A stretch of 64,000 nt of DNA from an archaeon (GTDB lineage: Archaea; Aenigmatarchaeota; Aenigmatarchaeia; Aenigmatarchaeales; JACQIB01): the NCBI GenBank assembly GCA_035291225.1, contig DATDSO010000004.1:331130-395129 (forward strand), read 5' to 3'. Below, one piece after another: positions 1,043 through 62,842 of this stretch. Below the pieces are notes generated by a model. It had not been told where the DNA came from and did not search any database. It was given only the letters and a program-made list of their open reading frames with translations. Positions within the stretch are counted from its first letter, which is position 1. Each line of letters begins with the position of its first letter. The position numbers were made by a program, and so were the translations under genes.

Positions 1043-3541
1043 ATGCCCCGAATAACAAAACTGGAAATTCAAGGCTTCAAGTCCTTTGCAAAGAAAACGC
1101 AAATTCTCTTTCCAAGCAACTTCTCAATTATAGCTGGTCCGAACGGCTCTGGGAAAAGCAATGTTCTTGACGCAATTGTTTTTGTTTTAGGAAGGACAAG
1201 CGCAAAAAGCATCCGCGCGGACAAAATGCTGGAAGTGATTTTCAACGGCTCGAAAAAATCCAGCCCGGCGGAATTCGCAAGCGTGAAAATGCACTTCGAC
1301 AACAAGGACAAAAAATTTCCTGTAGAGGCGGATGAAATTGAAATCAACAGAAAAGTAAACAGAAAGGGAGTTTCAATTTACAAATTAAACAGCCAAACTG
1401 TAACGCGCGAAAAAATTCTTGAAGTTTTGCGCGCGGCAAACATAAATCCTGATGGGCACAACATAATTTTGCAGGGAGATGTGACAAATGTAATTGAGAT
1501 GTCTGATTTAGAACGCAGGGAAATTATAGACGATATTTCAGGAATTTCAGAATTCGAGGACAAGCGCGAAAAAGCAAACAAGGAATTAATGGTTGTTGAA
1601 GAAAGGCTTGACACGACTTCTGTGATTTTGGGCGAACGGGAAAACCAAATGAAAAAATTGCAGGAAGAGGCAAAATCCGCTATTGAATACAATGATTTAG
1701 CAAAAGAGCTTGATAAGCTACGCGCTTCTCTGGCTGCGCGCAGGCTCGGAGAGGCTGGCGAAGCAATGAAAATTCTTGAGGAGAAAATTTCCGAGAAAGA
1801 AAAAGAAACAAAAATTGCAGAGGCAGAAGTTTCCGCAATAGATTCTGAAATGGATAAAACCCAGAAAGAATTTTCCATGCTTACGGAAAAAACAATTTCG
1901 CGCGCCGGCGATGTTTCAATTATAAAGGAAGCGGAAAAAATCCGCGCGGAAATTTACGCAAAGAAAAATAAAATCGAGAGCGGTGAATTTGACATAAAAA
2001 GAATTGATGATGTGATTGCGCGGCTGAAGGATATTGCTGAAAGGGCTTTGACAGAAAGCGCGAGCGGGGCTGTGCAGGCTGTTTTGAAATTAAACCGCAC
2101 GGGGATTTATGGAACAATCGCCAAGCTCTCGAAAGTTCCGCAAAACTTCCAGACTGCAATTGAAGTTTGCGCAGGCCCGCACCTACACGATTTGGTTGTT
2201 TCTGATTCTTCTGTTGCAGTTGACTGCGTGAATTATTTGAAGCAAAACAGAGTGGGCCGCGCAACTTTTCTTCCGCTGGACAAAATTCACGAGCGCAATC
2301 CAGAGCATGTTAGAAGATTTTTGAAGCAGCCCGGAGTTGTCGGGCTTGCAATTGACTTAATCCAGTTTGACAAAAAATACTGGCACGCGTTCTCGCATAT
2401 TTTCGGGGACACGTTGGTTGTGGACAAAATTGAAACCGCGCGGCGCATTGGAATCGGCGAGGCGCGCATGGTTACTCTTGATGGAGATTTAGTTGAGCGC
2501 GGCGGCGCGATAATCGGCGGGTTTTACAGAAGCGACAAAAAAGTTTTTTCTGTGGCCGAAGATTTTTCAAAATATGAAAAAGAGAAAGAGAGAATTTTGC
2601 GCGAGAGTGAAAGCCTGCAAATTGAAATTGAAAAACTTTCCCGCGAGCTGGAAAAACTTTCCCAACAGGAACAAGCGGGCGGAAAAGAAGTTTCTGAAAT
2701 GCAGACAGCACGCGCTGATGCAGAGAAGGCTCTGCATGGATTGAGGCTGAGAAGGAAAGAGGCTTTTGAGCACAAGCTGAACTTGGGCGAGGAAATTAAC
2801 AAGCTGAAAATTTCCCGCGCGCGGTTTGAGGCAGAGCTGGAGAATATCAAAGCGGAATTTTCAAATTACAAGCAGGAGCTCGCCGAGTACAAAGAAATGA
2901 GCGCCGGAGAATTGAACACGAAAATTTTGAAATCAGTTTCGAAAATTCAGTCTCTCGGACCGATAAACCAGAAAGCAGTTGAGGAGTTCGAGGAAATAAA
3001 AAAAGGGTTTTCCGAGCTGAAGGAAAAATTTGATGTGCTTACAAAGGAAAGGGACAGGGTTGTGAAAATGATTCTGGAAATTGAATCTGGCAGAAAAGAA
3101 ACTTTCATGAAAACTTTCAATGCGATTTCCCAGCAGTTCAAAAATGTTTACAAGGACTTAACAAATGGCGAGGGATTTTTGAGCTTGGACAATGAGCTGA
3201 TTGATGAGGCGGGTTTGATAATTGAGGCAGTGCCTGCCGGAAAGAAAAAAATAAATATAGATTCAATGTCCGGCGGGGAAAAAACAATGGTCGCGCTTGC
3301 TTTTCTTTTTGCTTTGCAAAGATTCAGGCCGTCCCCATTCTATATTTTAGATGAGATTGATGCTGCTTTGGATAAGCCAAATGCCGCCCGCGTTGTTGGC
3401 CTGATAAAAAAATATTCGGACAATGCGCAGTTTATTGTTATCTCGCATAATGAAACAACAATTCAGGCTGCGGACTGCGTTTACGGAGTGAGCATGGACG
3501 AGGGAGAAAGCAAAATGGTTGGGATTAGGATGCCTGGGTGA
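1043..3541 (+). CDS. smc: Chromosome segregation protein SMC, compact form (832 aa)
   Basis: N-terminal Walker A GPNGSGKSN, central hinge (GIYGTIAKL...GRATFLPLDKI), C-terminal ABC signature SGGEKTMVALAFLFAL and Walker B FYILDEIDAALD. Confidence 0.9.
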   Translation: MPRITKLEIQGFKSFAKKTQILFPSNFSIIAGPNGSGKSNVLDAIVFVLGRTSAKSIRADKMLEVIFNGSKKSSPAEFASVKMHFDNKDKKFPVEADEIEINRKVNRKGVSIYKLNSQTVTREKILEVLRAANINPDGHNIILQGDVTNVIEMSDLERREIIDDISGISEFEDKREKANKELMVVEERLDTTSVILGERENQMKKLQEEAKSAIEYNDLAKELDKLRASLAARRLGEAGEAMKILEEKISEKEKETKIAEAEVSAIDSEMDKTQKEFSMLTEKTISRAGDVSIIKEAEKIRAEIYAKKNKIESGEFDIKRIDDVIARLKDIAERALTESASGAVQAVLKLNRTGIYGTIAKLSKVPQNFQTAIEVCAGPHLHDLVVSDSSVAVDCVNYLKQNRVGRATFLPLDKIHERNPEHVRRFLKQPGVVGLAIDLIQFDKKYWHAFSHIFGDTLVVDKIETARRIGIGEARMVTLDGDLVERGGAIIGGFYRSDKKVFSVAEDFSKYEKEKERILRESESLQIEIEKLSRELEKLSQQEQAGGKEVSEMQTARADAEKALHGLRLRRKEAFEHKLNLGEEINKLKISRARFEAELENIKAEFSNYKQELAEYKEMSAGELNTKILKSVSKIQSLGPINQKAVEEFEEIKKGFSELKEKFDVLTKERDRVVKMILEIESGRKETFMKTFNAISQQFKNVYKDLTNGEGFLSLDNELIDEAGLIIEAVPAGKKKINIDSMSGGEKTMVALAFLFALQRFRPSPFYILDEIDAALDKPNAARVVGLIKKYSDNAQFIVISHNETTIQAADCVYGVSMDEGESKMVGIRMPG

Positions 3542-7528: not shown

Positions 7529-7981
7529 CTATCTTGCATAACTAAGCAAATCGCGCGCGCCGAAATATTTCTTCTCCGCAGCTTTTATTGTCCCAGAAAC
7601 CCCAATCACGCGGATTATTAATGGAGCATCACCCACGCGATTGAGAAGCGCCAAAGCTGCGCGAATTTTCTCAACGGCAGTGTGGTTGCACCTAATCATC
7701 CCAGTGTTTTTTTCCTCGTTCCATTCATTTTTCATAATCCATGCACCGGCTTCTGCTGCGCCCATCTCTCCCATATAATTCAGAATCGCATGCCACATCG
7801 CATTGCTCAAATCCTGAAAAGGAATTTTCTGGCTTGCAATAACTTCATAAGCTAAATATCTTTTTTTCTCACGCAAAGTCGGGGAGAGAAAGTTCGGCCT
7901 TCCTCCTAGTTCTTGTTCAAGCTTTTCCTGTGGGGTCAGTTCATGCACTTCGGCAGTTTCTTCTTCTACCATTTTCATCAC
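7529..7981 (-). CDS. rnp2: RNase P protein component 2 (Pop5 homologue)
   Basis: REKKRYLAYEV...GMIRCNHTAVEKIRAALALLNRV...GVSGTIKAA pattern of archaeal Pop5; overlaps rpp30-like gene by 4 nt. Confidence 0.7.
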   Translation of the reverse strand: MMKMVEEETAEVHELTPQEKLEQELGGRPNFLSPTLREKKRYLAYEVIASQKIPFQDLSNAMWHAILNYMGEMGAAEAGAWIMKNEWNEEKNTGMIRCNHTAVEKIRAALALLNRVGDAPLIIRVIGVSGTIKAAEKKYFGARDLLSYAR

Positions 7982-8700
7982 TTAACTAATTCAACGCCTT
8001 CCGCGATTCTCGTTCCTGAGAAAATCGCCCTGTTTTTTTCAATTATTTTTTGCGGAATCTCGCTCGTTGCTGAAAAGCCTTTGCTCAGCTCGAGACCCAA
8101 ATTTTCTGCGAGCGCAACAAGCTGGCGCGGATCTCTGATTTCCCAAATATTGCTGGCGCCACTGCATAAAATTGTTTTCACCTTTAAAGCCTCGCATAAT
8201 CTCAAATTTAGAGCAGTATTCTGCAAAATCTGCGAGCGTTGCCTGCGGAAATTGTTTAATATTTCCCTGAAATTTATTTCTATCGCGACATTATTTTCAA
8301 ATGCTTTTTGCATGCAGGCTTCATCCAGTCCAGAATCTAGCCTCCCGAAATCTGGGTGAGCTAAAATATCCACACGCGCATCCTCGCATGCCGCGCGATT
8401 GATCTTGTAATTCCCACCAAGAACAATCACTATGATTGCAAGCTCGCGGACTTTTTCTAATGCTCTCTTAAGCTCCATAGGATCACCAACCTGAATTTCA
8501 ACTGCTGGAAAAATCTCAACTTTTGTATTTTTTTGCGCGTCTATAACAGAGGATTTAAACTGCTTGAATTTTTCCACAGATTCAAACCTGTCCGCGAGAG
8601 CAAAGCCATCCCATCCGAGCCTTTCAGCCATTTTTGCAAATTCCTCTGCTGTGTTCGCGCCGGCGCCAACGTGCAAGTCATAGAACTTCATATAATTCAC
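7978..8700 (-). CDS. rnp3: RNase P protein component 3 (Rpp30 homologue, PHP/TIM-barrel)
   Basis: FYDLHV N-terminus, 240 aa, adjacent to pop5-like gene as in conserved archaeal cluster. Confidence 0.75.
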   Translation of the reverse strand: MNYMKFYDLHVGAGANTAEEFAKMAERLGWDGFALADRFESVEKFKQFKSSVIDAQKNTKVEIFPAVEIQVGDPMELKRALEKVRELAIIVIVLGGNYKINRAACEDARVDILAHPDFGRLDSGLDEACMQKAFENNVAIEINFREILNNFRRQRSQILQNTALNLRLCEALKVKTILCSGASNIWEIRDPRQLVALAENLGLELSKGFSATSEIPQKIIEKNRAIFSGTRIAEGVELVK

Positions 8701-45727: not shown

Positions 45728-45916
45728 GGGCTCGTGGTATAGCTTGGTATTATTCGAGGTTATGTTGGAATTTTACCAGCACCTCAACGGGACCTCGCGA
45801 CCTGTGTTCAAACGGCCTTTTCTTTCATGGAAAGAAAAGAACCGCGGAAAAGAAAGATATTAAATCCAAAAAGGCAGATAGCCTTCGGATATATGAAAAT
45901 CACAGCGAGCCCACCA
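45728..45916 (+). tRNA. tRNA-Pro (anticodon CGG inferred) with two introns (33/34 and 59/60) and encoded CCA
   Basis: Acceptor GGGCUCG pairs CGAGCCC then A-CCA; U8, A14, G18G19; anticodon stem CGAGG/CCUCG; T-stem CUGUG/CACAG; introns 45762-45787 and 45813-45899 each flanked by a 4 bp helix with 3 nt bulges (BHB). Confidence 0.65.
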
Positions 45917-50742: not shown

Positions 50743-51216
50743 TCACTTTTGTTTTAATAACTCCACTCTTATTGATTTTATATCATCCTCTTTTAGTTTT
50801 GAAAAAGCGGCCATTGTATTCGCATAAAAATCCGACGCATATTTTTTAACCTGATTTATCGTTGAATCTAAAACGCCCTTATCTGGATAGTATTGCAAAT
50901 CACTTCTTGCTTCGGAAGCTTCATAAATCATCTCAATATCTTTCTCGGAATAAAATTTTCTTAAAAAAGTTTTCATGAAAAGCAAAGAGCATGCATGTAT
51001 TTCACACTTAACTCCTATTCTCATGAGAAGCGCATATAGGCAATAGTACATTGTGTAATAAGAGGCGGAAGCAATCCAGATTTTACTCTCAAGCTTTTTC
51101 AACTGCTCCAAGGACTCTTCTGCCATTTTTAGATAAGAGCGCGAAACGTTTTCATTTGGCTCTACAAGCTCCAGCCCATTTTTTGCGCGGAGGCACCACC
51201 TAATATTTAATGCCAT
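50743..51216 (-). CDS. HEPN-domain protein (putative toxin of HEPN/MNT pair 1)
   Basis: All-alpha 157 aa protein with R-x7-H (RIGVKCEIH); overlaps upstream MNT gene by 17 nt. Confidence 0.55.
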   Translation of the reverse strand: MALNIRWCLRAKNGLELVEPNENVSRSYLKMAEESLEQLKKLESKIWIASASYYTMYYCLYALLMRIGVKCEIHACSLLFMKTFLRKFYSEKDIEMIYEASEARSDLQYYPDKGVLDSTINQVKKYASDFYANTMAAFSKLKEDDIKSIRVELLKQK

Positions 51217-51781
51217 AAAAATCTGACCAAATTTTATTTATGAAATCTTCCAAACCTTTAATTATTATGTGGTTCGACACTATCTCGCTTATCATAGGGC
51301 TTTTTTCTTTTAGCGCGGAAATAAACTGCTTCTCAGAATAAATTTTCCCGCTTATATTTAAATCGTACTTTAGCGCGACTTTTTTTATCTGAGCCCTGCT
51401 TCCATCAACAACAAACAAGTCGGTGTCGGAGGTTTTTTTCTCCGCGCCTCTTGCGTAGCTCCCGAATATGCAAATTATTTTTCCATCAATTTCTTTCATT
51501 GCCAAGTTTATTTTAGGATTTTTTTGCTGGAAAACTTTAGAATTTTCATTTTCAGCCTCCAGCAGAAATGATTTCATAACAGGGCTGCGCAGATTAAGCG
51601 AATAGTATTTTTGTTTCCCCTCTATCTTTGAAAGCAAAATATCATTTGCTTCCATTTTCTTCAGAGTTGATGCTATCCATTTCTGGCTTATTGAAACCTT
51701 CCCAACAATCTGCCTTCCGTAAATTCTTCTGTTATAATCTCCCAAAAAAAGCTTCAATATCTCAGCTTCTTTATTGTGCAT
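51200..51781 (-). CDS. Minimal nucleotidyltransferase (MNT) with N-terminal wHTH (putative antitoxin of pair 1)
   Basis: GSYARGAEKKTSDTDLFVV nucleotidyltransferase motif; N-terminal wHTH-like region. Confidence 0.65.
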   Translation of the reverse strand: MHNKEAEILKLFLGDYNRRIYGRQIVGKVSISQKWIASTLKKMEANDILLSKIEGKQKYYSLNLRSPVMKSFLLEAENENSKVFQQKNPKINLAMKEIDGKIICIFGSYARGAEKKTSDTDLFVVDGSRAQIKKVALKYDLNISGKIYSEKQFISALKEKSPMISEIVSNHIIIKGLEDFINKIWSDFYGIKY

Positions 51782-51825
51782 AATAATACACATATGTGTA
51801 GTTTTCTACTCTTTATAAACTTTTA

Positions 51826-52254: not shown

Positions 52255-52286
52255 TATTTAAATTTGACTTCCCATTTTAAAAGCAC

Positions 52287-52568
52287 GGGCTCGTGGTCTA
52301 GTCCATCCCTTCTTTCTTTTTCCGAAAGAAGAGCTTCAAAAAAGAAAGAAGCGATAGGTTTTCGGAAGAAAGAAAAAGACGGATGGAGAAATTGGAATGA
52401 AGCGCCCGCGCTTCAGCACGGGAAGAGCTTCAACACAATGACGCGACGTTCGCAACGTCGAAGCCGTGGGTTCAAACCCAAGCCTTTTTCGTGAAAAAGG
52501 CTAGGGCTTATCCAAAAAAGCAGATAGCCGCTTCGCGGGTATATCAGAAATTCCCACCGAGTCCACCA
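52287..52568 (+). tRNA. tRNA-Ala (anticodon CGC) with T-loop intron and a long unresolved D-region insertion; encoded CCA
   Basis: Acceptor GGGCUCG/CGAGUCC with G3:U70, A73-CCA; anticodon arm CGACG-UUCGCAA-CGUCG (52444-52460); T-stem GUGGG/CCCAC split by 52477-52551; D-stem GUCU/UGAC split by about 135 nt. Confidence 0.6.
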
Positions 52569-52570
52569 AT

Positions 52571-52810
52571 TCAACTATAGAAGCGCATTGTTCCAAACCC
52601 TATATCATCCTCAGAGACTCTTACTTCGCCTCTCTGAACAGCCTCGTCAAGAAATCTTTCTACCCGGTCTCTCACCCGTGGATATTCGGGATGTCCGACT
52701 GGACATATTTGTACAGTAACTGCCTCGGCGGGGAATTCTCCAGAATTATCATATCTTGCGCGTAGTTCTCTCAGCCTTGCTTTGGCGGTTTCTCTTGAAA
52801 CAAACAACAT
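52571..52810 (-). CDS. Hypothetical small protein (79 aa)
   Basis: Intact ORF between two tRNA genes; GC-richer than surroundings; no motif. Confidence 0.3.
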   Translation of the reverse strand: MLFVSRETAKARLRELRARYDNSGEFPAEAVTVQICPVGHPEYPRVRDRVERFLDEAVQRGEVRVSEDDIGFGTMRFYS

Positions 52811-52934
52811 GGAAATAAATGATTTCTGACAAATTTAAACTTATTTACTTCACTTGCTTTCAAACGAAAATTTTATTTTATTCGACAAAAGCATGGGCGC
52901 GTTCGGCCCGCGGATAGGTCTGTTTAAAAATTAG

Positions 52935-53123
52935 TGGTGGGCGGGCAGAGATTTCCGAACCGCGGAAACCTAAGGTTTCCTCAGTTCAAGGTTTTTCCTG
53001 ATCCTTCCTCAGGTTCTTGCTTCGCAATTATTTTATTTGAACTCTGGACCCCCACATTATCAGTGTGGTGCTCGTTGGCATTTTTCTTTTTAGAAAAATT
53101 TAACCAGGCTGAGCCACCCGCCC
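52935..53123 (-). tRNA. tRNA-Ile (anticodon GAU) with D-loop and T-loop introns; encoded CCA
   Basis: Minus strand: GGGCGGG-U-G-GCUC-AGCCUGGUUA, 27 nt insert, GAGC; anticodon arm CCACA-CUGAUAA-UGUGG; T-stem CAGAG/CUCUG split by about 84 nt; acceptor 3' CCCGCCC-A-CCA. Confidence 0.65.
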
Positions 53124-53172
53124 ATTGATGTTAATTTCATAGAAGTCTTTAAAAAGTTTCAGTTGTTCAAAA

Positions 53173-55056
53173 TTATTTCAACCTAACCGTCTCCAACAAC
53201 CTCGGCGCCAGCGTCTCGCACTTGAAAATCCTGTGTGCATTCCGCGCGAACTCAATGCACTTCATAGCCTCTCCGTGGTTTGCAATAATTCTCTCAGGAT
53301 TGTTTCGCAATTTTCCAATATAGTTCATCAGCTGTTTGTAATCAGAATGCCCAGACAACCCGTCCATTGTTAGAACTTCCATATTCAGCGGAACAGATTT
53401 TGTGCGGCCGTCAATTTCCATAGGCACTTCCTTGTAGCCTTTTTGTATTTTCCTCCCAAGGGAATTTTCAGCCTGCCAGCCCACAAAAATTATCATATTT
53501 TTTTTGTCCTCAGCAAAAGCCTTGAAATAATTTACAGCCGGTCCTCCAGTCAGCATTCCGCTTGTTGAAATCACAACAGCTGGGTCGCTTGAGTCAATGA
53601 TTTTTTTCCTCTCAGTTTCCGAGCCAACTCTTTTGAAAAAATTTTGCGTGAAAGGATTCCATCCCTCAACCAGAATTTTTCTCTGCATCTCGCGGCTCAT
53701 GAACTCTGGATATGTAGTATGCAAAGCAGAAACATCCCAAATCATTCCGTCTAAATAAATTGGAATATCCAAATTCGCCATTGCAAGAATAACTTGAATA
53801 TCCTGCGCGCGCTGGACTGCGAAAGAAGGAATCAAAACTTTTCCATTTCGCGCAATTGCTTTTTTCACAGCATTTACTAATCCAGCTTCAGCTTCATCGC
53901 GCCGCGGCTGAATATCTTCAGGCAAACCATAAGTGCTTTCTGTAATTACAGTTTCAGCTCGCGCGAAATCATGGCTCGCGGGATCATACAAAAGCGTGCG
54001 GTCAAATTTTAAATCTCCTGTGTACAAAACATTATGCAATCCATTTCCAATATGCACATGCACAAGCGAGCCTCCTAGAATATGCCCATCGTTCAAAAGT
54101 GTAAGCCGCATGTCTGGAGTTATGTCAGAAACTTCTCCCCAGTCTAATGGAACGCAATGCTTCACTGCTTCTGTAATTCCTTTTGTTGTGTATGGAAGCG
54201 GTCTGCCTTCTCTCTGTGCAATTTCAATCATGTCCATGCACATCATCACCATTAAATCCCGCGAAGGCTCTGTGAGGTAAAGCGGCGCCTCGCAGCCATA
54301 TTCATAAAGCCACGGAATAAATCCTGCGTGGTCCATGTGCGCGTGGCTCAAAACAACTGAATCCAGTTTTTGCAAATCAAATTCCGGAACTCCGAGATAA
54401 GGATAGTCAGTTGAGCCGCCGGGTTTTACCCCGCAGTCCATTAGAATTCTGGATTCAGGAGTTGAAAGCAAAACCGCAGAGCGACCAACTTCCCTGAACG
54501 CGCCAAGCGCAGTCATGCGAATCCAGTCAGTCGGCTTCCACCCGCCGTGAATTCTTTTTCCAACTTTGTTCAGAAAATCTTTTCTCCACTCGCTTTCCAT
54601 GTGAATTATTTTTCTCAAAGTTTTCACAACCTCGCTCGGAATCGCAGGCGCCCTTCTTACAACAGGAGTCCAGAAAATTTGCCTTTTGATTTCGCGCAGA
54701 ATTTCCCCGCCCGCGCCGATCGCAATTCCCGGCTTGTCAACTTCAATAATTGCAGTCCCAAATCCGGGCTCAAAAGAAATTTCCCGCAAGCCCGCTTCCT
54801 CGGGAATAATTTCCTGAATTGCTTTTTTCGCTTTTTCCACATCAGCCATTATGCTCGCGTCCGGCCGCAGGAGAATTCTTTTTTTGAGCTCCATGACTTT
54901 ATTTTTCAAAACATCTCCGGGCTCTGCAAAAAATTCCTTGCTCTTTGTGTAGAGAACAATTTCACATCCCTCATATTTTATGTCAGAAATATTTGCTCCG
55001 CTGGGCAGGCCTTCTTTTACTTTTTCAAATAATTCTTGTGTTGAGATTTCTACCAT
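53173..55056 (-). CDS. aCPSF1-type beta-CASP ribonuclease with N-terminal KH domains
   Basis: N-terminal KH region, metallo-beta-lactamase motif HAHMDHAG, beta-CASP and C-terminal His motifs; 627 aa. Confidence 0.9.
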   Translation of the reverse strand: MVEISTQELFEKVKEGLPSGANISDIKYEGCEIVLYTKSKEFFAEPGDVLKNKVMELKKRILLRPDASIMADVEKAKKAIQEIIPEEAGLREISFEPGFGTAIIEVDKPGIAIGAGGEILREIKRQIFWTPVVRRAPAIPSEVVKTLRKIIHMESEWRKDFLNKVGKRIHGGWKPTDWIRMTALGAFREVGRSAVLLSTPESRILMDCGVKPGGSTDYPYLGVPEFDLQKLDSVVLSHAHMDHAGFIPWLYEYGCEAPLYLTEPSRDLMVMMCMDMIEIAQREGRPLPYTTKGITEAVKHCVPLDWGEVSDITPDMRLTLLNDGHILGGSLVHVHIGNGLHNVLYTGDLKFDRTLLYDPASHDFARAETVITESTYGLPEDIQPRRDEAEAGLVNAVKKAIARNGKVLIPSFAVQRAQDIQVILAMANLDIPIYLDGMIWDVSALHTTYPEFMSREMQRKILVEGWNPFTQNFFKRVGSETERKKIIDSSDPAVVISTSGMLTGGPAVNYFKAFAEDKKNMIIFVGWQAENSLGRKIQKGYKEVPMEIDGRTKSVPLNMEVLTMDGLSGHSDYKQLMNYIGKLRNNPERIIANHGEAMKCIEFARNAHRIFKCETLAPRLLETVRLK

Positions 55057-57236: not shown

Positions 57237-57641
57237 TCAAAAGTTTTTCATAACCTCGCTTTTTGCAAAATCAAAAATCCTCTCGCCATGCTTCACAGCG
57301 CTTTCAGCATCTCCGCGGCTCAGCAGACGGTTCCCATACTCTGCGTCGGATTTTATTTGCAGAAGCGCGGACAAATGTTTCACTGCGTTCTTTATGTCAT
57401 TGCTGTTAGGGTCAATGCTGTTCAGCAGCGCGAGCGCGTCTGTGTGATTTTCGCTTGCGTTCCTTAAACCTTTTTTCCATATACAAAGCGCATCCGCAGA
57501 GGAAATCGCGCAGTGTATAGCGCTTATCACGCAGCCGTTCCACTCCTCCGCCTCGAGCGAGCGGCTCATTGAGTTCTTGCACTCTTCCGCGCGCTTTAGA
57601 TAATCTTTTGCGTAATGCCTGTCGAGGTTTCGGGTTTTCAT
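57237..57641 (-). CDS. HEPN-domain protein (putative toxin of HEPN/MNT pair 2)
   Basis: 134 aa all-alpha protein with archaeal HEPN-like blocks (WNGCVISAIHCAISSADAL, NAVKHLSALL...AEYG); overlaps MNT gene by 4 nt. Confidence 0.6.
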   Translation of the reverse strand: MKTRNLDRHYAKDYLKRAEECKNSMSRSLEAEEWNGCVISAIHCAISSADALCIWKKGLRNASENHTDALALLNSIDPNSNDIKNAVKHLSALLQIKSDAEYGNRLLSRGDAESAVKHGERIFDFAKSEVMKNF

Positions 57642-58228
57642 CTTTCTATCACTGCAATGCCTTTTTTAATTTCCTCTAAAAGTTTTTTATTTTTGAATTT
57701 CGAATATTCTTTTTCTGTCATTACAATAGGAGAAAGTTTATTGCCATATTTTTGCAGGCAAAAGTCGCTGAACTTTTCTAAAGAGGCGCCGACCTTTCTC
57801 TTTTCTTTATCTCTATTGATCAGAATAAATAAGTCTATGTCGCTTGTTGGCCTTTCTTTCCCATCGGGAATAGAGCCGAAAATAATAGTTTTTTTCACGC
57901 CCGCAACACGGCCAAGAAATAACGCTATATCTTTTTTCAACTCATTTAGAGGTGAAGATTTTATTTTCATAGAAAAGTTTTGCAAAAAGCTGTAGGCATA
58001 ACTTCTTTTATTCAGCTTCCATATTGTAGAATTTCCAACTCTGGACGGGTTTATTAAATTAAGTTCGTGGAGTGATTTTAGAACTTTATTTACAGAGTCT
58101 GGAGAAACCCCTGTAATTGAGGCTATTTCCCTTTCGCTTGTTGTAGACTCTTCCGCAAGCAAGTATTTTACAAGTTTTAGCTTAGCCCACGATCCTATAA
58201 GATTCTCCGCAAATTCTTTGAATATCAT
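57638..58228 (-). CDS. Minimal nucleotidyltransferase with N-terminal wHTH (putative antitoxin of pair 2)
   Basis: GSIPDGKERPTSDIDLFIL nucleotidyltransferase motif; N-terminal wHTH (SEREIASITGVSPDSVNKVLKSLHELNLI). Confidence 0.65.
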   Translation of the reverse strand: MIFKEFAENLIGSWAKLKLVKYLLAEESTTSEREIASITGVSPDSVNKVLKSLHELNLINPSRVGNSTIWKLNKRSYAYSFLQNFSMKIKSSPLNELKKDIALFLGRVAGVKKTIIFGSIPDGKERPTSDIDLFILINRDKEKRKVGASLEKFSDFCLQKYGNKLSPIVMTEKEYSKFKNKKLLEEIKKGIAVIER

Positions 58229-58243
58229 GAAATATAGTAGCAT

Positions 58244-61804: not shown

Positions 61805-62842
61805 ATGGTCTTTGAAGCGGAAAGGGCTCCCAGGCTAAGAGGTATGTTAAGCTTAGATGGCGCGGCGTACACACAATTTGGAGATGGAATGAAAATAGTA
61901 ACTGAAGGAGAAGCAAACATAGTTGCAATCTATTTGCTCATATGCAAAGAGAGAGGTGACACCCCAGATAAGAAAAAGTTGGAAGGCATGGGAAGAGAGG
62001 TTGGAATGAAAAAAGTTGTTTTGCAGAATGGCCTTGTATATCTCCAGCCTCTTGGAGACGGCGGAAAACCATATATTCCAGGGTCATGCACGGCATGCAG
62101 CAAATCTCACACAGAAGAAGCTAGATTGGTGTTTGGTAATAACATTGTTGGGGATGGCTTGGATCTTGGAGATGGCTTAGGATTCCAACATTTCGGCATT
62201 TCTGGAAAAGGCAGAAGGCGGATTGGAAGCCTTATCGAAAAGAATTTCAAATCAGATGATACAGAAGTTGATGTTGATTATCTCTTGGTTCCTCCGGAAG
62301 ATGGATACGGAGGGTTCTTGGATTTCACTTACAGTTATAAAATAATGAAAAATTCGAGACCAGGAATTTTAGGAAAAGCAGAAATTTTGCCTGGGGTTTC
62401 GATGGTTCTTGTAAATCCTGGAGGCAGGGCTCCCAGATATGTTGTTGATGTTAATGTAAAAACTGCAGACAGTGAAAAAGGTTCAGATTGCGAAACAGAA
62501 GTATTTGTGGCGCATATAGATGGCCCGCAAAATGCAGAAGTTATGAAATTCTTTTTTGATCCTAATGGAAAAATGAGAAAAGTGGAATCTCTAAGCAAAG
62601 GAGAAATTGGAGGTGGATTTTCCGGCAGGAGGGTTGCAGAAGTAGTAAAAAGAGGGGAAGGCTCTCCTCTTGAATACAGCGCAGCAACGGAGGAAGCGGG
62701 CGTTCTTTCAGAAGCTGTCTTCGGTAAAGATGTTACCGGTATGGTTCACTATACTGCTGAAACCTTGAAAGTATTAGTAAGGTCTGCCCGCACAGAAGAT
62801 AAAACAGACCCTTTAAGGCAAATGGTTTTTTCTGAAGCGTAA
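61805..62842 (+). CDS. Hypothetical Gly-rich protein (345 aa)
   Basis: Intact long ORF; composition atypical for neighbours; no motif. Confidence 0.45.
   Translation: MVFEAERAPRLRGMLSLDGAAYTQFGDGMKIVTEGEANIVAIYLLICKERGDTPDKKKLEGMGREVGMKKVVLQNGLVYLQPLGDGGKPYIPGSCTACSKSHTEEARLVFGNNIVGDGLDLGDGLGFQHFGISGKGRRRIGSLIEKNFKSDDTEVDVDYLLVPPEDGYGGFLDFTYSYKIMKNSRPGILGKAEILPGVSMVLVNPGGRAPRYVVDVNVKTADSEKGSDCETEVFVAHIDGPQNAEVMKFFFDPNGKMRKVESLSKGEIGGGFSGRRVAEVVKRGEGSPLEYSAATEEAGVLSEAVFGKDVTGMVHYTAETLKVLVRSARTEDKTDPLRQMVFSEA

Follow-up and report, generated by a model that had tools for sequence, protein, structure and literature searches.

A tRNA-Ile(GAU) gene with predicted introns in its D-loop and T-loop in a DPANN archaeon near Aenigmatarchaeota

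Known disrupted tRNA genes

Introns with bulge-helix-bulge (BHB) motifs are on record in the D- and T-loops of tRNA genes, as are tRNA genes with several introns, and position 59/60 is one of the listed sites (PMC6379350, PMC4090602). The relaxed hBH and HBh' motifs that occur in these two loops are cleaved efficiently only by a broad-specificity form of the splicing endonuclease EndA (PMC6379350). Here we describe a locus on the minus strand of contig DATDSO010000004.1, within an analysed stretch of 64,000 nt (the window, to which all coordinates refer unless a locus label is given), that to judge from its sequence is very probably a functional tRNA-Ile(GAU) gene with introns in the D-loop and the T-loop. 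The kind of gene is already known from other multi-intron archaeal tRNAs, and this one is an added member from a lineage near Aenigmatarchaeota. What goes beyond the published statements found is the presence of four introns in two genes, the use of the same T-loop site in every gene seen, and the lineage itself.

The EndA of Thermoproteales is an (alpha-beta)2 enzyme with a Crenarchaea-specific loop. In this group, for example in Pyrobaculum calidifontis, two or more introns per gene are found in the D-arm, anticodon arm and T-loop, with 59/60 among the listed sites (PMC4090602), just as in the genome considered here. Relaxed hBH and HBh' motifs, BHBs that form only after removal of another intron and related introns in different tRNA genes are also common to both, and the similar introns in different genes of Thermoproteales were interpreted as evidence of intron transposition (PMC4090602, PMC8450103). 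However, the Thermoproteales are Crenarchaeota, whereas the present host belongs to DPANN near Aenigmatarchaeota, and the intron sites are scattered there, whereas 59/60 is occupied in 5/5 genes here. The stated maximum for an archaeal tRNA is "up to three" introns and the record stands at 71 introns in 46 genes (PMC8450103). Here the tRNA-Ser gene and the tRNA-Ile gene of one relative (locus L004) require four introns each, and the density is 2.6 introns per gene in what is a small sample.

Other DPANN archaea have disrupted tRNA genes too and share the superphylum with the present host; these include ARMAN-2/Micrarchaeota, with an epsilon2 EndA, and lineages with an alpha4 EndA that bears an L3 loop. 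The latter show more tRNA gene disruption, and disrupted genes that had escaped detection were predicted for DPANN (PMC5829648); the tRNA-Ile locus is such a gene. No published description of disrupted tRNAs in Aenigmatarchaeota-like archaea was found in a literature survey of incomplete coverage.

Outside the archaea, introns interrupt the nuclear tRNA-Ile(UAU) gene of the red alga Cyanidioschyzon merolae at 37/38 as well as in its D-stem and T-loop, and both splicing and an ordered removal were demonstrated by reverse transcription PCR (PMC3728597), which shows that an enzyme of the EndA family can process precursors of this type in vivo. It is likewise a tRNA-Ile with BHB introns in the D-arm and T-loop, but it is eukaryotic, has another anticodon and its introns give no sign of common descent with those described here; of the 42 introns counted there, 4 are T-loop introns, whereas every gene seen here has one. 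The split and permuted tRNA genes of Nanoarchaeum equitans, Caldivirga and Thermofilum resemble the present gene in a BHB-dependent maturation by EndA and in belonging to small or unusual archaeal genomes. The tRNA-Ile gene differs from them in having three contiguous, ordered exons that are collinear on one strand within 189 nt, and it is thus neither split nor permuted.

The tRNA-Ile(GAU) gene and its counterparts in related archaea

The gene occupies 189 nt from 53123 to 52935 on the minus strand and contains two inserts. An earlier note on this DNA had proposed a minus-strand tRNA-Ile(GAU) with D-loop and T-loop introns, a proposal with which in-silico splicing, conservation, covariation and BHB-like junctions agree, and the elements that it listed were all recovered at their positions. 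Exon 1 (53101..53123, minus strand; tRNA positions 1-21) reads GGGCGGG-U-G-GCUC-AGCCUGGUUA, i.e. the 5' strand of the acceptor, U8 and G9, the 5' strand of the D-stem and the D-loop. Intron 1, of 27 nt (53074..53100, minus strand), lies in the D-loop between positions 21 and 22. Exon 2 (53036..53073, minus strand; positions 22-59) continues with the D-stem strand GAGC and A26, followed by an intact anticodon arm with the loop CUGAUAA (CCACA-CUGAUAA-UGUGG), the variable loop GGGUC, the T-stem strand CAGAG and UUCAAA of the T-loop. The T-stem is indeed split, its strands CAGAG and CUCUG lying 91 nt apart, of which 7 nt are the T-loop and 84 nt are intron 2 (52952..53035, minus strand), placed at 59/60. 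Exon 3 (52935..52951, minus strand) holds U60, CUCUG, the acceptor strand CCCGCCC, the discriminator A73 and an encoded CCA (52937-52935, minus strand).

Removal of the 27 and 84 nt left a sequence of 78 nt that ARAGORN called as tRNA-Ile(gat) with an encoded CCA and a canonical cloverleaf. The predicted exon-exon junctions are CCUGGUUA joined to GAGCACC in the D-loop (GGUUA to GAGC) and GAGUUCAAA joined to UCUCUGCC in the T-loop (UUCAAA to UCUCUG). The acceptor, D-, anticodon and T-stems of the spliced form have 7, 4, 5 and 5 bp, the 7-nt anticodon loop has U33, a purine at 37 and the anticodon GAU, and the conserved tertiary nucleotides U8, A14, G18-G19, G53-C61, U54-U55-C56 and A58 are all present, with a T-loop of UUCAAAU. 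On the raw 64-kb window, ARAGORN called no tRNAs and Rfam gave nothing above gathering thresholds; around the tRNA-Ile locus there was no tRNA match even at E <= 10, the Rfam tRNA model having been applied to unspliced DNA. Such a miss is expected of a gene in which inserts in both the D- and the T-loop break the model. The fold of the precursor had a z of -4.7 relative to shuffles.

Junctions were scored by the archaeal BHB rule, in which the central helix (H) has 4 bp, each 3-nt bulge is cut behind its second base, and further helices lie on the outer (h) and inner (h') sides. At the D-loop intron the central helix is complete (H = 4/4), U17a-G18-G19-U20 (53106-53103) pairing with GCCA (53079-53076); this is the 4-bp UGGU/GCCA helix that the earlier note had described, and it was found to include one G.U pair and to be accompanied by an 8-bp hairpin (h', AUUUUUCU-AAAA-AGAAAAAU). 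The 5' bulge UAA is cut after UA, and the 3' cut falls between C and G of ACG, opposite an open loop. These helices (H = 4/4, h' = 8) were regenerated in 0/20,000 shuffles of the intron. The junction is predicted to be a relaxed BHB of the HBh' type, a documented class (PMC6379350), and not a strict hBHBh'.

At the T-loop intron the 5-bp T-stem doubles as the outer helix. The central helix pairs U54-U55-C56(-A57) (53041-53038) with (C)GGA (52957-52954), which gives H = 3/4, the 5' bulge A58-A59-U would be cut after A59 and the 3' bulge AAU60 before U60, and h' has 2 bp only; three hairpins are predicted inside the intron. The sequence alone permits a cut site anywhere from 56/57 to 60/61, and the intron was assigned to 59/60 because the BHB register picks that site. 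This junction, too, is predicted to be relaxed, of the hBH type and not a strict hBHBh'. A C/D-box small RNA was considered for the 84-nt intron and rejected, since inspection by eye showed CUGA twice and a C box (RUGAUGA) nowhere.

Relatives were compared by way of the neighbouring gene for FttA, at four loci labelled L030, L113, L114 and L004. The closest is L030, from the metagenome-assembled genome (MAG) "binchicken_co38_60", with a DNA identity to the window of 89% at the 3' end of FttA and 79% in the downstream genes. The mature tRNA-Ile of L030 is identical to that of the window (78/78), yet the gene has three introns. Its exon 1 is the same except for the register of the splice site, the D-loop intron lying one base further 5'. 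A strict 13-nt intron at 37/38 is extra, missing from the gene in the window, and the T-loop intron is that of the window with a 62-nt insertion. The locus L113 (FttA identity 69%) has the same gene order as the window, FttA-Ile-Ala-DUF192, and its tRNA-Ile gene has a single D-loop intron (h' = 7) and an uninterrupted T-loop. The D-loop intron thus measures 27, 13 and 24 nt in the window, L030 and L113, respectively, and each of the three retains a central helix (UGGU/GCCA, CUGG/CCAG and CUGG/CUGG). L114 (FttA 67%) combines a strict 37/38 intron with a 59/60 intron of 111 nt, at which the junction is weaker (CAAA-AA directly before U60), with 2 pairs in the central helix followed by a 12-bp h'. 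In L004 (FttA 63%) the tRNA-Ile(GAU) gene (2557-2760, plus strand) requires four introns, namely 48 nt in the D-loop, 21 nt at 30/31 (CGCU/AGCG), 13 nt at 37/38 and 44 nt at 59/60 (UUCA/UGAA), two of which leave a 7-nt exon, A31-A37, between them. A single intron in the anticodon region of L004 was tried, and no one deletion gave U33, whereas two introns did. The spliced tRNA-Ile of each relative was either called tRNA-Ile(gat) by ARAGORN or aligned to it without gaps. At most Aenigmatarchaeota loci (L005, L006, L025 and L033-L037) there was no tRNA after FttA, or the T-loops were normal.

The 84-nt T-loop intron is identical in the window and L030 (84/84) once the inserted palindrome is set aside, unlike the neighbouring FttA gene, which is 89% identical, and the D-loop intron, which is wholly different. 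The chance of 84 unchanged bases at 89% identity is about 6e-5. As it is conserved like the exons, this intron may be a functional RNA of its own, stable or circular. The palindrome in L030 is of 58-60 nt (TGACAT...ATGTCA, arms of 24-28 bp) and has two copies in 4.4 kb (503-562 and 1405-1462), each within a T-loop intron, of the tRNA-Ile and tRNA-Ala genes; it is found neither at the matching sites nor anywhere else in the window. It looks like a small mobile element that is tolerated in, or targets, T-loop introns. Also in L030, the tRNA-Ile cassette of about 227 bp, from promoter box to CCA, keeps its place but is inverted with respect to FttA and the genes downstream (L030 433-717 as against window 52928-53154).

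Covariation was assessed across the spliced tRNA-Ile of the window, L004, L113 and L114. With only four sequences and with splice boundaries set by the analyst, 100% of cloverleaf cells were paired and compensatory changes were counted in 9/21 pairs across the four lineages, a result equalled in 0/500 shuffles, while slid partners paired at 31-57%. The exons are thus constrained, the stems covary and the inserts vary with their junction helices kept, which argues for spliced introns and not for a decaying gene.

Expression, processing and other readings

A TATA-like box, TTTTTAAA, lies at 53148..53155 on the minus strand, 25-32 nt upstream of position 1 of the tRNA-Ile (-32..-25), and is presumed to be its archaeal promoter; the corresponding boxes of the tRNA-Pro and tRNA-Ala genes described below are TTTATAAA and TATTTAAA, both at -31..-24. 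A run of five T residues (52926..52930, minus strand) that begins 5 nt past the CCA is a possible archaeal transcription stop. Two 17-nt direct repeats (52914-52930 and 53139-53155) were considered as transposition scars. This was rejected, both repeats holding TTTTTAAA at promoter distance from a downstream gene, and they are read as a promoter consensus.

From the sequence and from established archaeal tRNA splicing we infer how the gene would be expressed, including the order of events. A precursor of about 189 nt, with its CCA already encoded, would be transcribed from its own TATA-box promoter, and its 5' leader would be trimmed by RNase P, of which the protein subunits Pop5 and Rpp30 are encoded at 7529-8700 of the window. 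EndA would recognise the two relaxed BHB motifs and cut two nt into each bulge. In the D-loop, U17a-G18-G19-U20 would pair with GCCA at the 3' end of the intron, stabilised by the 8-bp intron hairpin. In the T-loop, the T-stem would serve as outer helix, U54-U55-C56 would pair with the 3'-terminal GGA of the intron, and the cuts would fall after A59 and before U60. A ligase of the RtcB type would then join the three exons to give a 75-nt tRNA plus CCA.

Several observations weigh against this interpretation. The splice boundaries were set so as to yield a tRNA, and hence the exact junctions are partly circular. In the T-loop intron the central helix has 3/4 pairs, one of them G.U, and by sequence the site is ambiguous from 56/57 to 60/61. 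The helix is also modest when set against shuffles (P = 0.19 for H alone, 0.022 with h'), and the minimum-free-energy fold favours a slightly shifted register, UUC/GAA with a 2-nt bulge. Neither EndA (tRNA_int_endo) nor RtcB was found in a Pfam scan of about 64 of the 67 non-overlapping open reading frames (ORFs) of at least 80 aa in the window; an integrase was likewise not found among these ORFs.

The incomplete central helix and the shifted fold would suit a real tRNA-Ile from which the T-loop insert is cut out in a shifted register or through something other than a standard EndA-BHB reaction, e.g. with a different cleavage pair within 56/57-60/61 or in dependence on a cofactor or guide. 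The equivalent helix in L114, of only 2 pairs albeit with a 12-bp h' next to it, and the lack of an EndA gene among the window ORFs scanned point the same way. Against this, 6/7 independent or diverged 59/60 introns end in one register beside the T-stem (NGAA, 2 nt and U60), the CAAA of L114 sits in that same register, and perfect 4-bp UUCA/UGAA helices are found in three introns (tRNA-Pro, tRNA-Ser and L004), while EndA is documented to cut relaxed motifs of the hBH and HBh' types (PMC6379350). Nor was a ribozyme family matched: group I/II self-splicing was rejected, as the sole Rfam match was to group-II D1-D4 and below threshold (15.3 bits against a gathering score of 32, E = 1.3), and inserts of 27 and 84 nt are too short for a group I or group II ribozyme. 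Removal of the T-loop insert by such a different route is therefore considered unlikely.

More improbable still is a decaying tRNA pseudogene with two insertions, its role taken by a working tRNA-Ile(GAU) gene elsewhere in the genome. The standard tools give no call here, a mobile-looking palindrome has been inserted in the same region of L030, and the portion of the genome inspected amounts to about 82 kb of at least 874 kb (the window, about 9 kb upstream of it on locus L108, and 8.8 kb of right flank). However, the exons are the same (78/78) in two strains that share 89% identity in the flanking gene, the stems covary across lineages, both inserts lie in BHB contexts and the promoter box is kept. 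All five tRNA genes found have such inserts, and they cannot all be pseudogenes. That the region codes for a 64-aa protein and resembles a tRNA only incidentally can be given almost no credence. The ORF in question (52934-53128, plus strand) is present and has a GTG start, but it has no match to a Pfam family, it lies precisely antisense to a perfect split tRNA, and the indels of L030 (-14, +13 and +62 nt) shift and wreck its frame while the tRNA exons are unchanged; its rejection in the earlier note was thus well founded. A functional tRNA-Ile(GAU) gene with D-loop and T-loop introns is by far the most probable reading of the locus.

Further tRNA genes, the lineage and the meaning of the finding

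A scan of the window for hidden genes, which combined a T-stem, UUCRA, acceptor complementarity and CCA and which needs a recognisable T-arm, revealed two further candidates. The tRNA-Pro(CGG) gene (45728-45916, plus strand) is missed by both ARAGORN and Rfam, and its spliced 76-mer is called tRNA-Pro(cgg). Its introns are one of 26 nt at 33/34 (45762-45787, plus strand), with a strict BHB (GAGG/CCUC, h' = 6 bp), and one of 87 nt at 59/60 (45813-45899, plus strand; H = UUCA/UGAA). The hidden tRNA-Ala(CGC) gene, with G3:U70 (52287-52568, plus strand), has three introns, of 91 nt at 15/16 (52302-52392, plus strand), of 41 nt in the 3' part of the D-arm near 21/22-24/25 (about 52401-52441, plus strand, its boundary ambiguous by 5 nt) and of 75 nt at 59/60 (52477-52551, plus strand). 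The BHB of the 41-nt intron (GUGG/ACAC) forms only once the 15/16 intron has been removed, and in L030 the gene is without this intron, the 75-nt mature sequence being identical to that of the window. Two ORFs that overlap the tRNA-Ala gene (52264-52494, plus strand, and 52413-52574, minus strand) are spurious.

Two more genes are found upstream on L108, the same contig, and for both ARAGORN calls the spliced product. A tRNA-Ser(UGA) gene (L108 881-1161, plus strand), about 9 kb upstream of window position 1, has four introns, namely 26 nt in the D-arm, 117 nt at 37/38 (CUUG/UAAG), 34 nt at 54/55 (GCAG/CUGC) and 15 nt at 59/60. The perfect UUCA/UGAA helix at 59/60 arises only after the 54/55 intron is out; these two introns lie within one T-loop and would apparently be removed in order. 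A single T-loop intron was tried for this gene, and no one deletion gave UUCRAAU, whereas two introns did. A tRNA-Leu(UAA) gene (L108 7920-8126, plus strand) is situated between rpoD and the gene for L18e, about 2 kb upstream of the window; an intron of 47 nt interrupts it at 37/38 and one of 71 nt at 59/60.

In all, 13 introns were found in the five tRNA genes (Ser, Leu, Pro, Ala and Ile) of the approximately 82 kb, a density of 2.6 per gene in this small sample, and each gene has one at 59/60. The 3' ends of these 59/60 introns follow the consensus NGAA-NN before U60, as does that of L004. A T-arm signature was defined as a 5-bp stem, UUCRAA, an insert, NGAA or NGGA, 2 nt, U and the complementary stem strand. 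When both strands of these approximately 82 kb were scanned with it, the only matches were the tRNA-Leu, tRNA-Pro, tRNA-Ala and tRNA-Ile genes, the tRNA-Ser gene being beyond its reach since a second intron splits the T-loop. No further tRNA genes were found in the 8.8-kb right flank, which had been extended by way of the ORF at 61805-62842.

The T-loop introns of the tRNA-Pro, tRNA-Ala and tRNA-Leu genes can be aligned with one another over a 5' hairpin, then AUCC(A/C)AAA, then AUAU.(A/U)GAAA, and the tRNA-Ile T-loop intron of L114 has its 5' hairpin in common with the tRNA-Pro intron of the window, which points to a single intron family that shares its site across different tRNAs. The tRNA-Ile T-loop intron of the window shows no visible membership in this family. 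Metagenome contigs were also searched with a shared intron motif, the 18-mer CCAAAAARGCAGATAGCC; the search was set aside, none of its 70 matches having a tRNA context, a number that is about the chance level by an estimate made without a computed expectation.

The archaeal character of the window, which has a GC content of 41.7%, is clear from Pfam matches of its genes, among them those for FttA/aCPSF1 (53173-55056, minus strand), proteasome subunits, RNase P Pop5 and Rpp30, and ProRS. The nearest named homologues of FttA are from Candidatus Aenigmatarchaeota, at 64-68% identity; next come MAGs labelled Nanoarchaeota and Micrarchaeota, and Hadarchaeota at about 49%. Between its own 90% cluster and 69% identity a GTDB scan and a protein search found no FttA homologues, a gap by which the lineage appears isolated. 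Judged by the neighbouring genes and the FttA homologues, the host is a DPANN archaeon of a sparsely sampled branch near Aenigmatarchaeota. The window proteins HLE07432.1-HLE07434.1 are present in many samples, on contigs of up to 873,710 bp; samples in which the organism occurs include those behind ERZ27254836, SRR2090162, JGI 3300002502 and 3300002529. Loci L108-L110 are at least 99.99% identical among themselves, and likewise L111 and L112.

Three other features of the window were noted. Two pairs of nucleotidyltransferase and HEPN genes, toxin-antitoxin-like, flank the FttA-tRNA region (50743-51793 and 57237-58243, both minus strand). Between the tRNA-Ile and tRNA-Ala genes there is a 79-aa ORF (52571-52810, minus strand), annotated by NCBI as hypothetical protein HLE07433.1. 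Its cluster has no other member and is restricted to this species, Pfam gives no match for it, and L030 has a different sequence at that place; perhaps it is no gene. The third is a 210-nt gap between rpoN and smc at about 830-1045 (L108 9785-10005), with three successive hairpins of 9-12 bp (GAGAAAATCC..GGATTTTCT, ATCGAAATC..GATTTCGAT and AGAGTTTTTGCT..AGCAAAAATCT), no Rfam match, and in some annotations a 66-aa ORF on the opposite strand.

The 64-kb window thus has zero tRNAs by standard tools and actually three, with two more just upstream. From missing tRNAs in DPANN genomes it has been argued that these genomes are incomplete or that the organisms depend on a host. Multi-intron genes that escape detection would be a simpler explanation, and the T-arm signature offers a means of finding them. 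With respect to tRNA gene disruption the present genome looks extreme. It is possible, though held here only tentatively, that essentially every tRNA gene of the lineage has a 59/60 intron, this position being a universal portable splice site: an intron with NGAA plus 2 nt at its end could be spliced from any tRNA, whose own T-stem would form the outer helix and whose invariant U54-U55-C56-A57 would make up half of the central one. If this is true, no known lineage would have a higher tRNA intron load.

Integrating elements classically use the T-arm for attachment. The idea that disruption protects against integration, which is due to Randau and Söll as cited in PMC4033280, could be tested against the alternative of selfish spread in a lineage where the T-arm is interrupted in every tRNA gene. 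Between close strains whole introns have been gained or lost while the mature tRNAs are identical, which makes this a compact natural system for the spread of BHB introns. The finding also leads to the prediction that a broad-specificity EndA may be present in a DPANN group without a characterised one.

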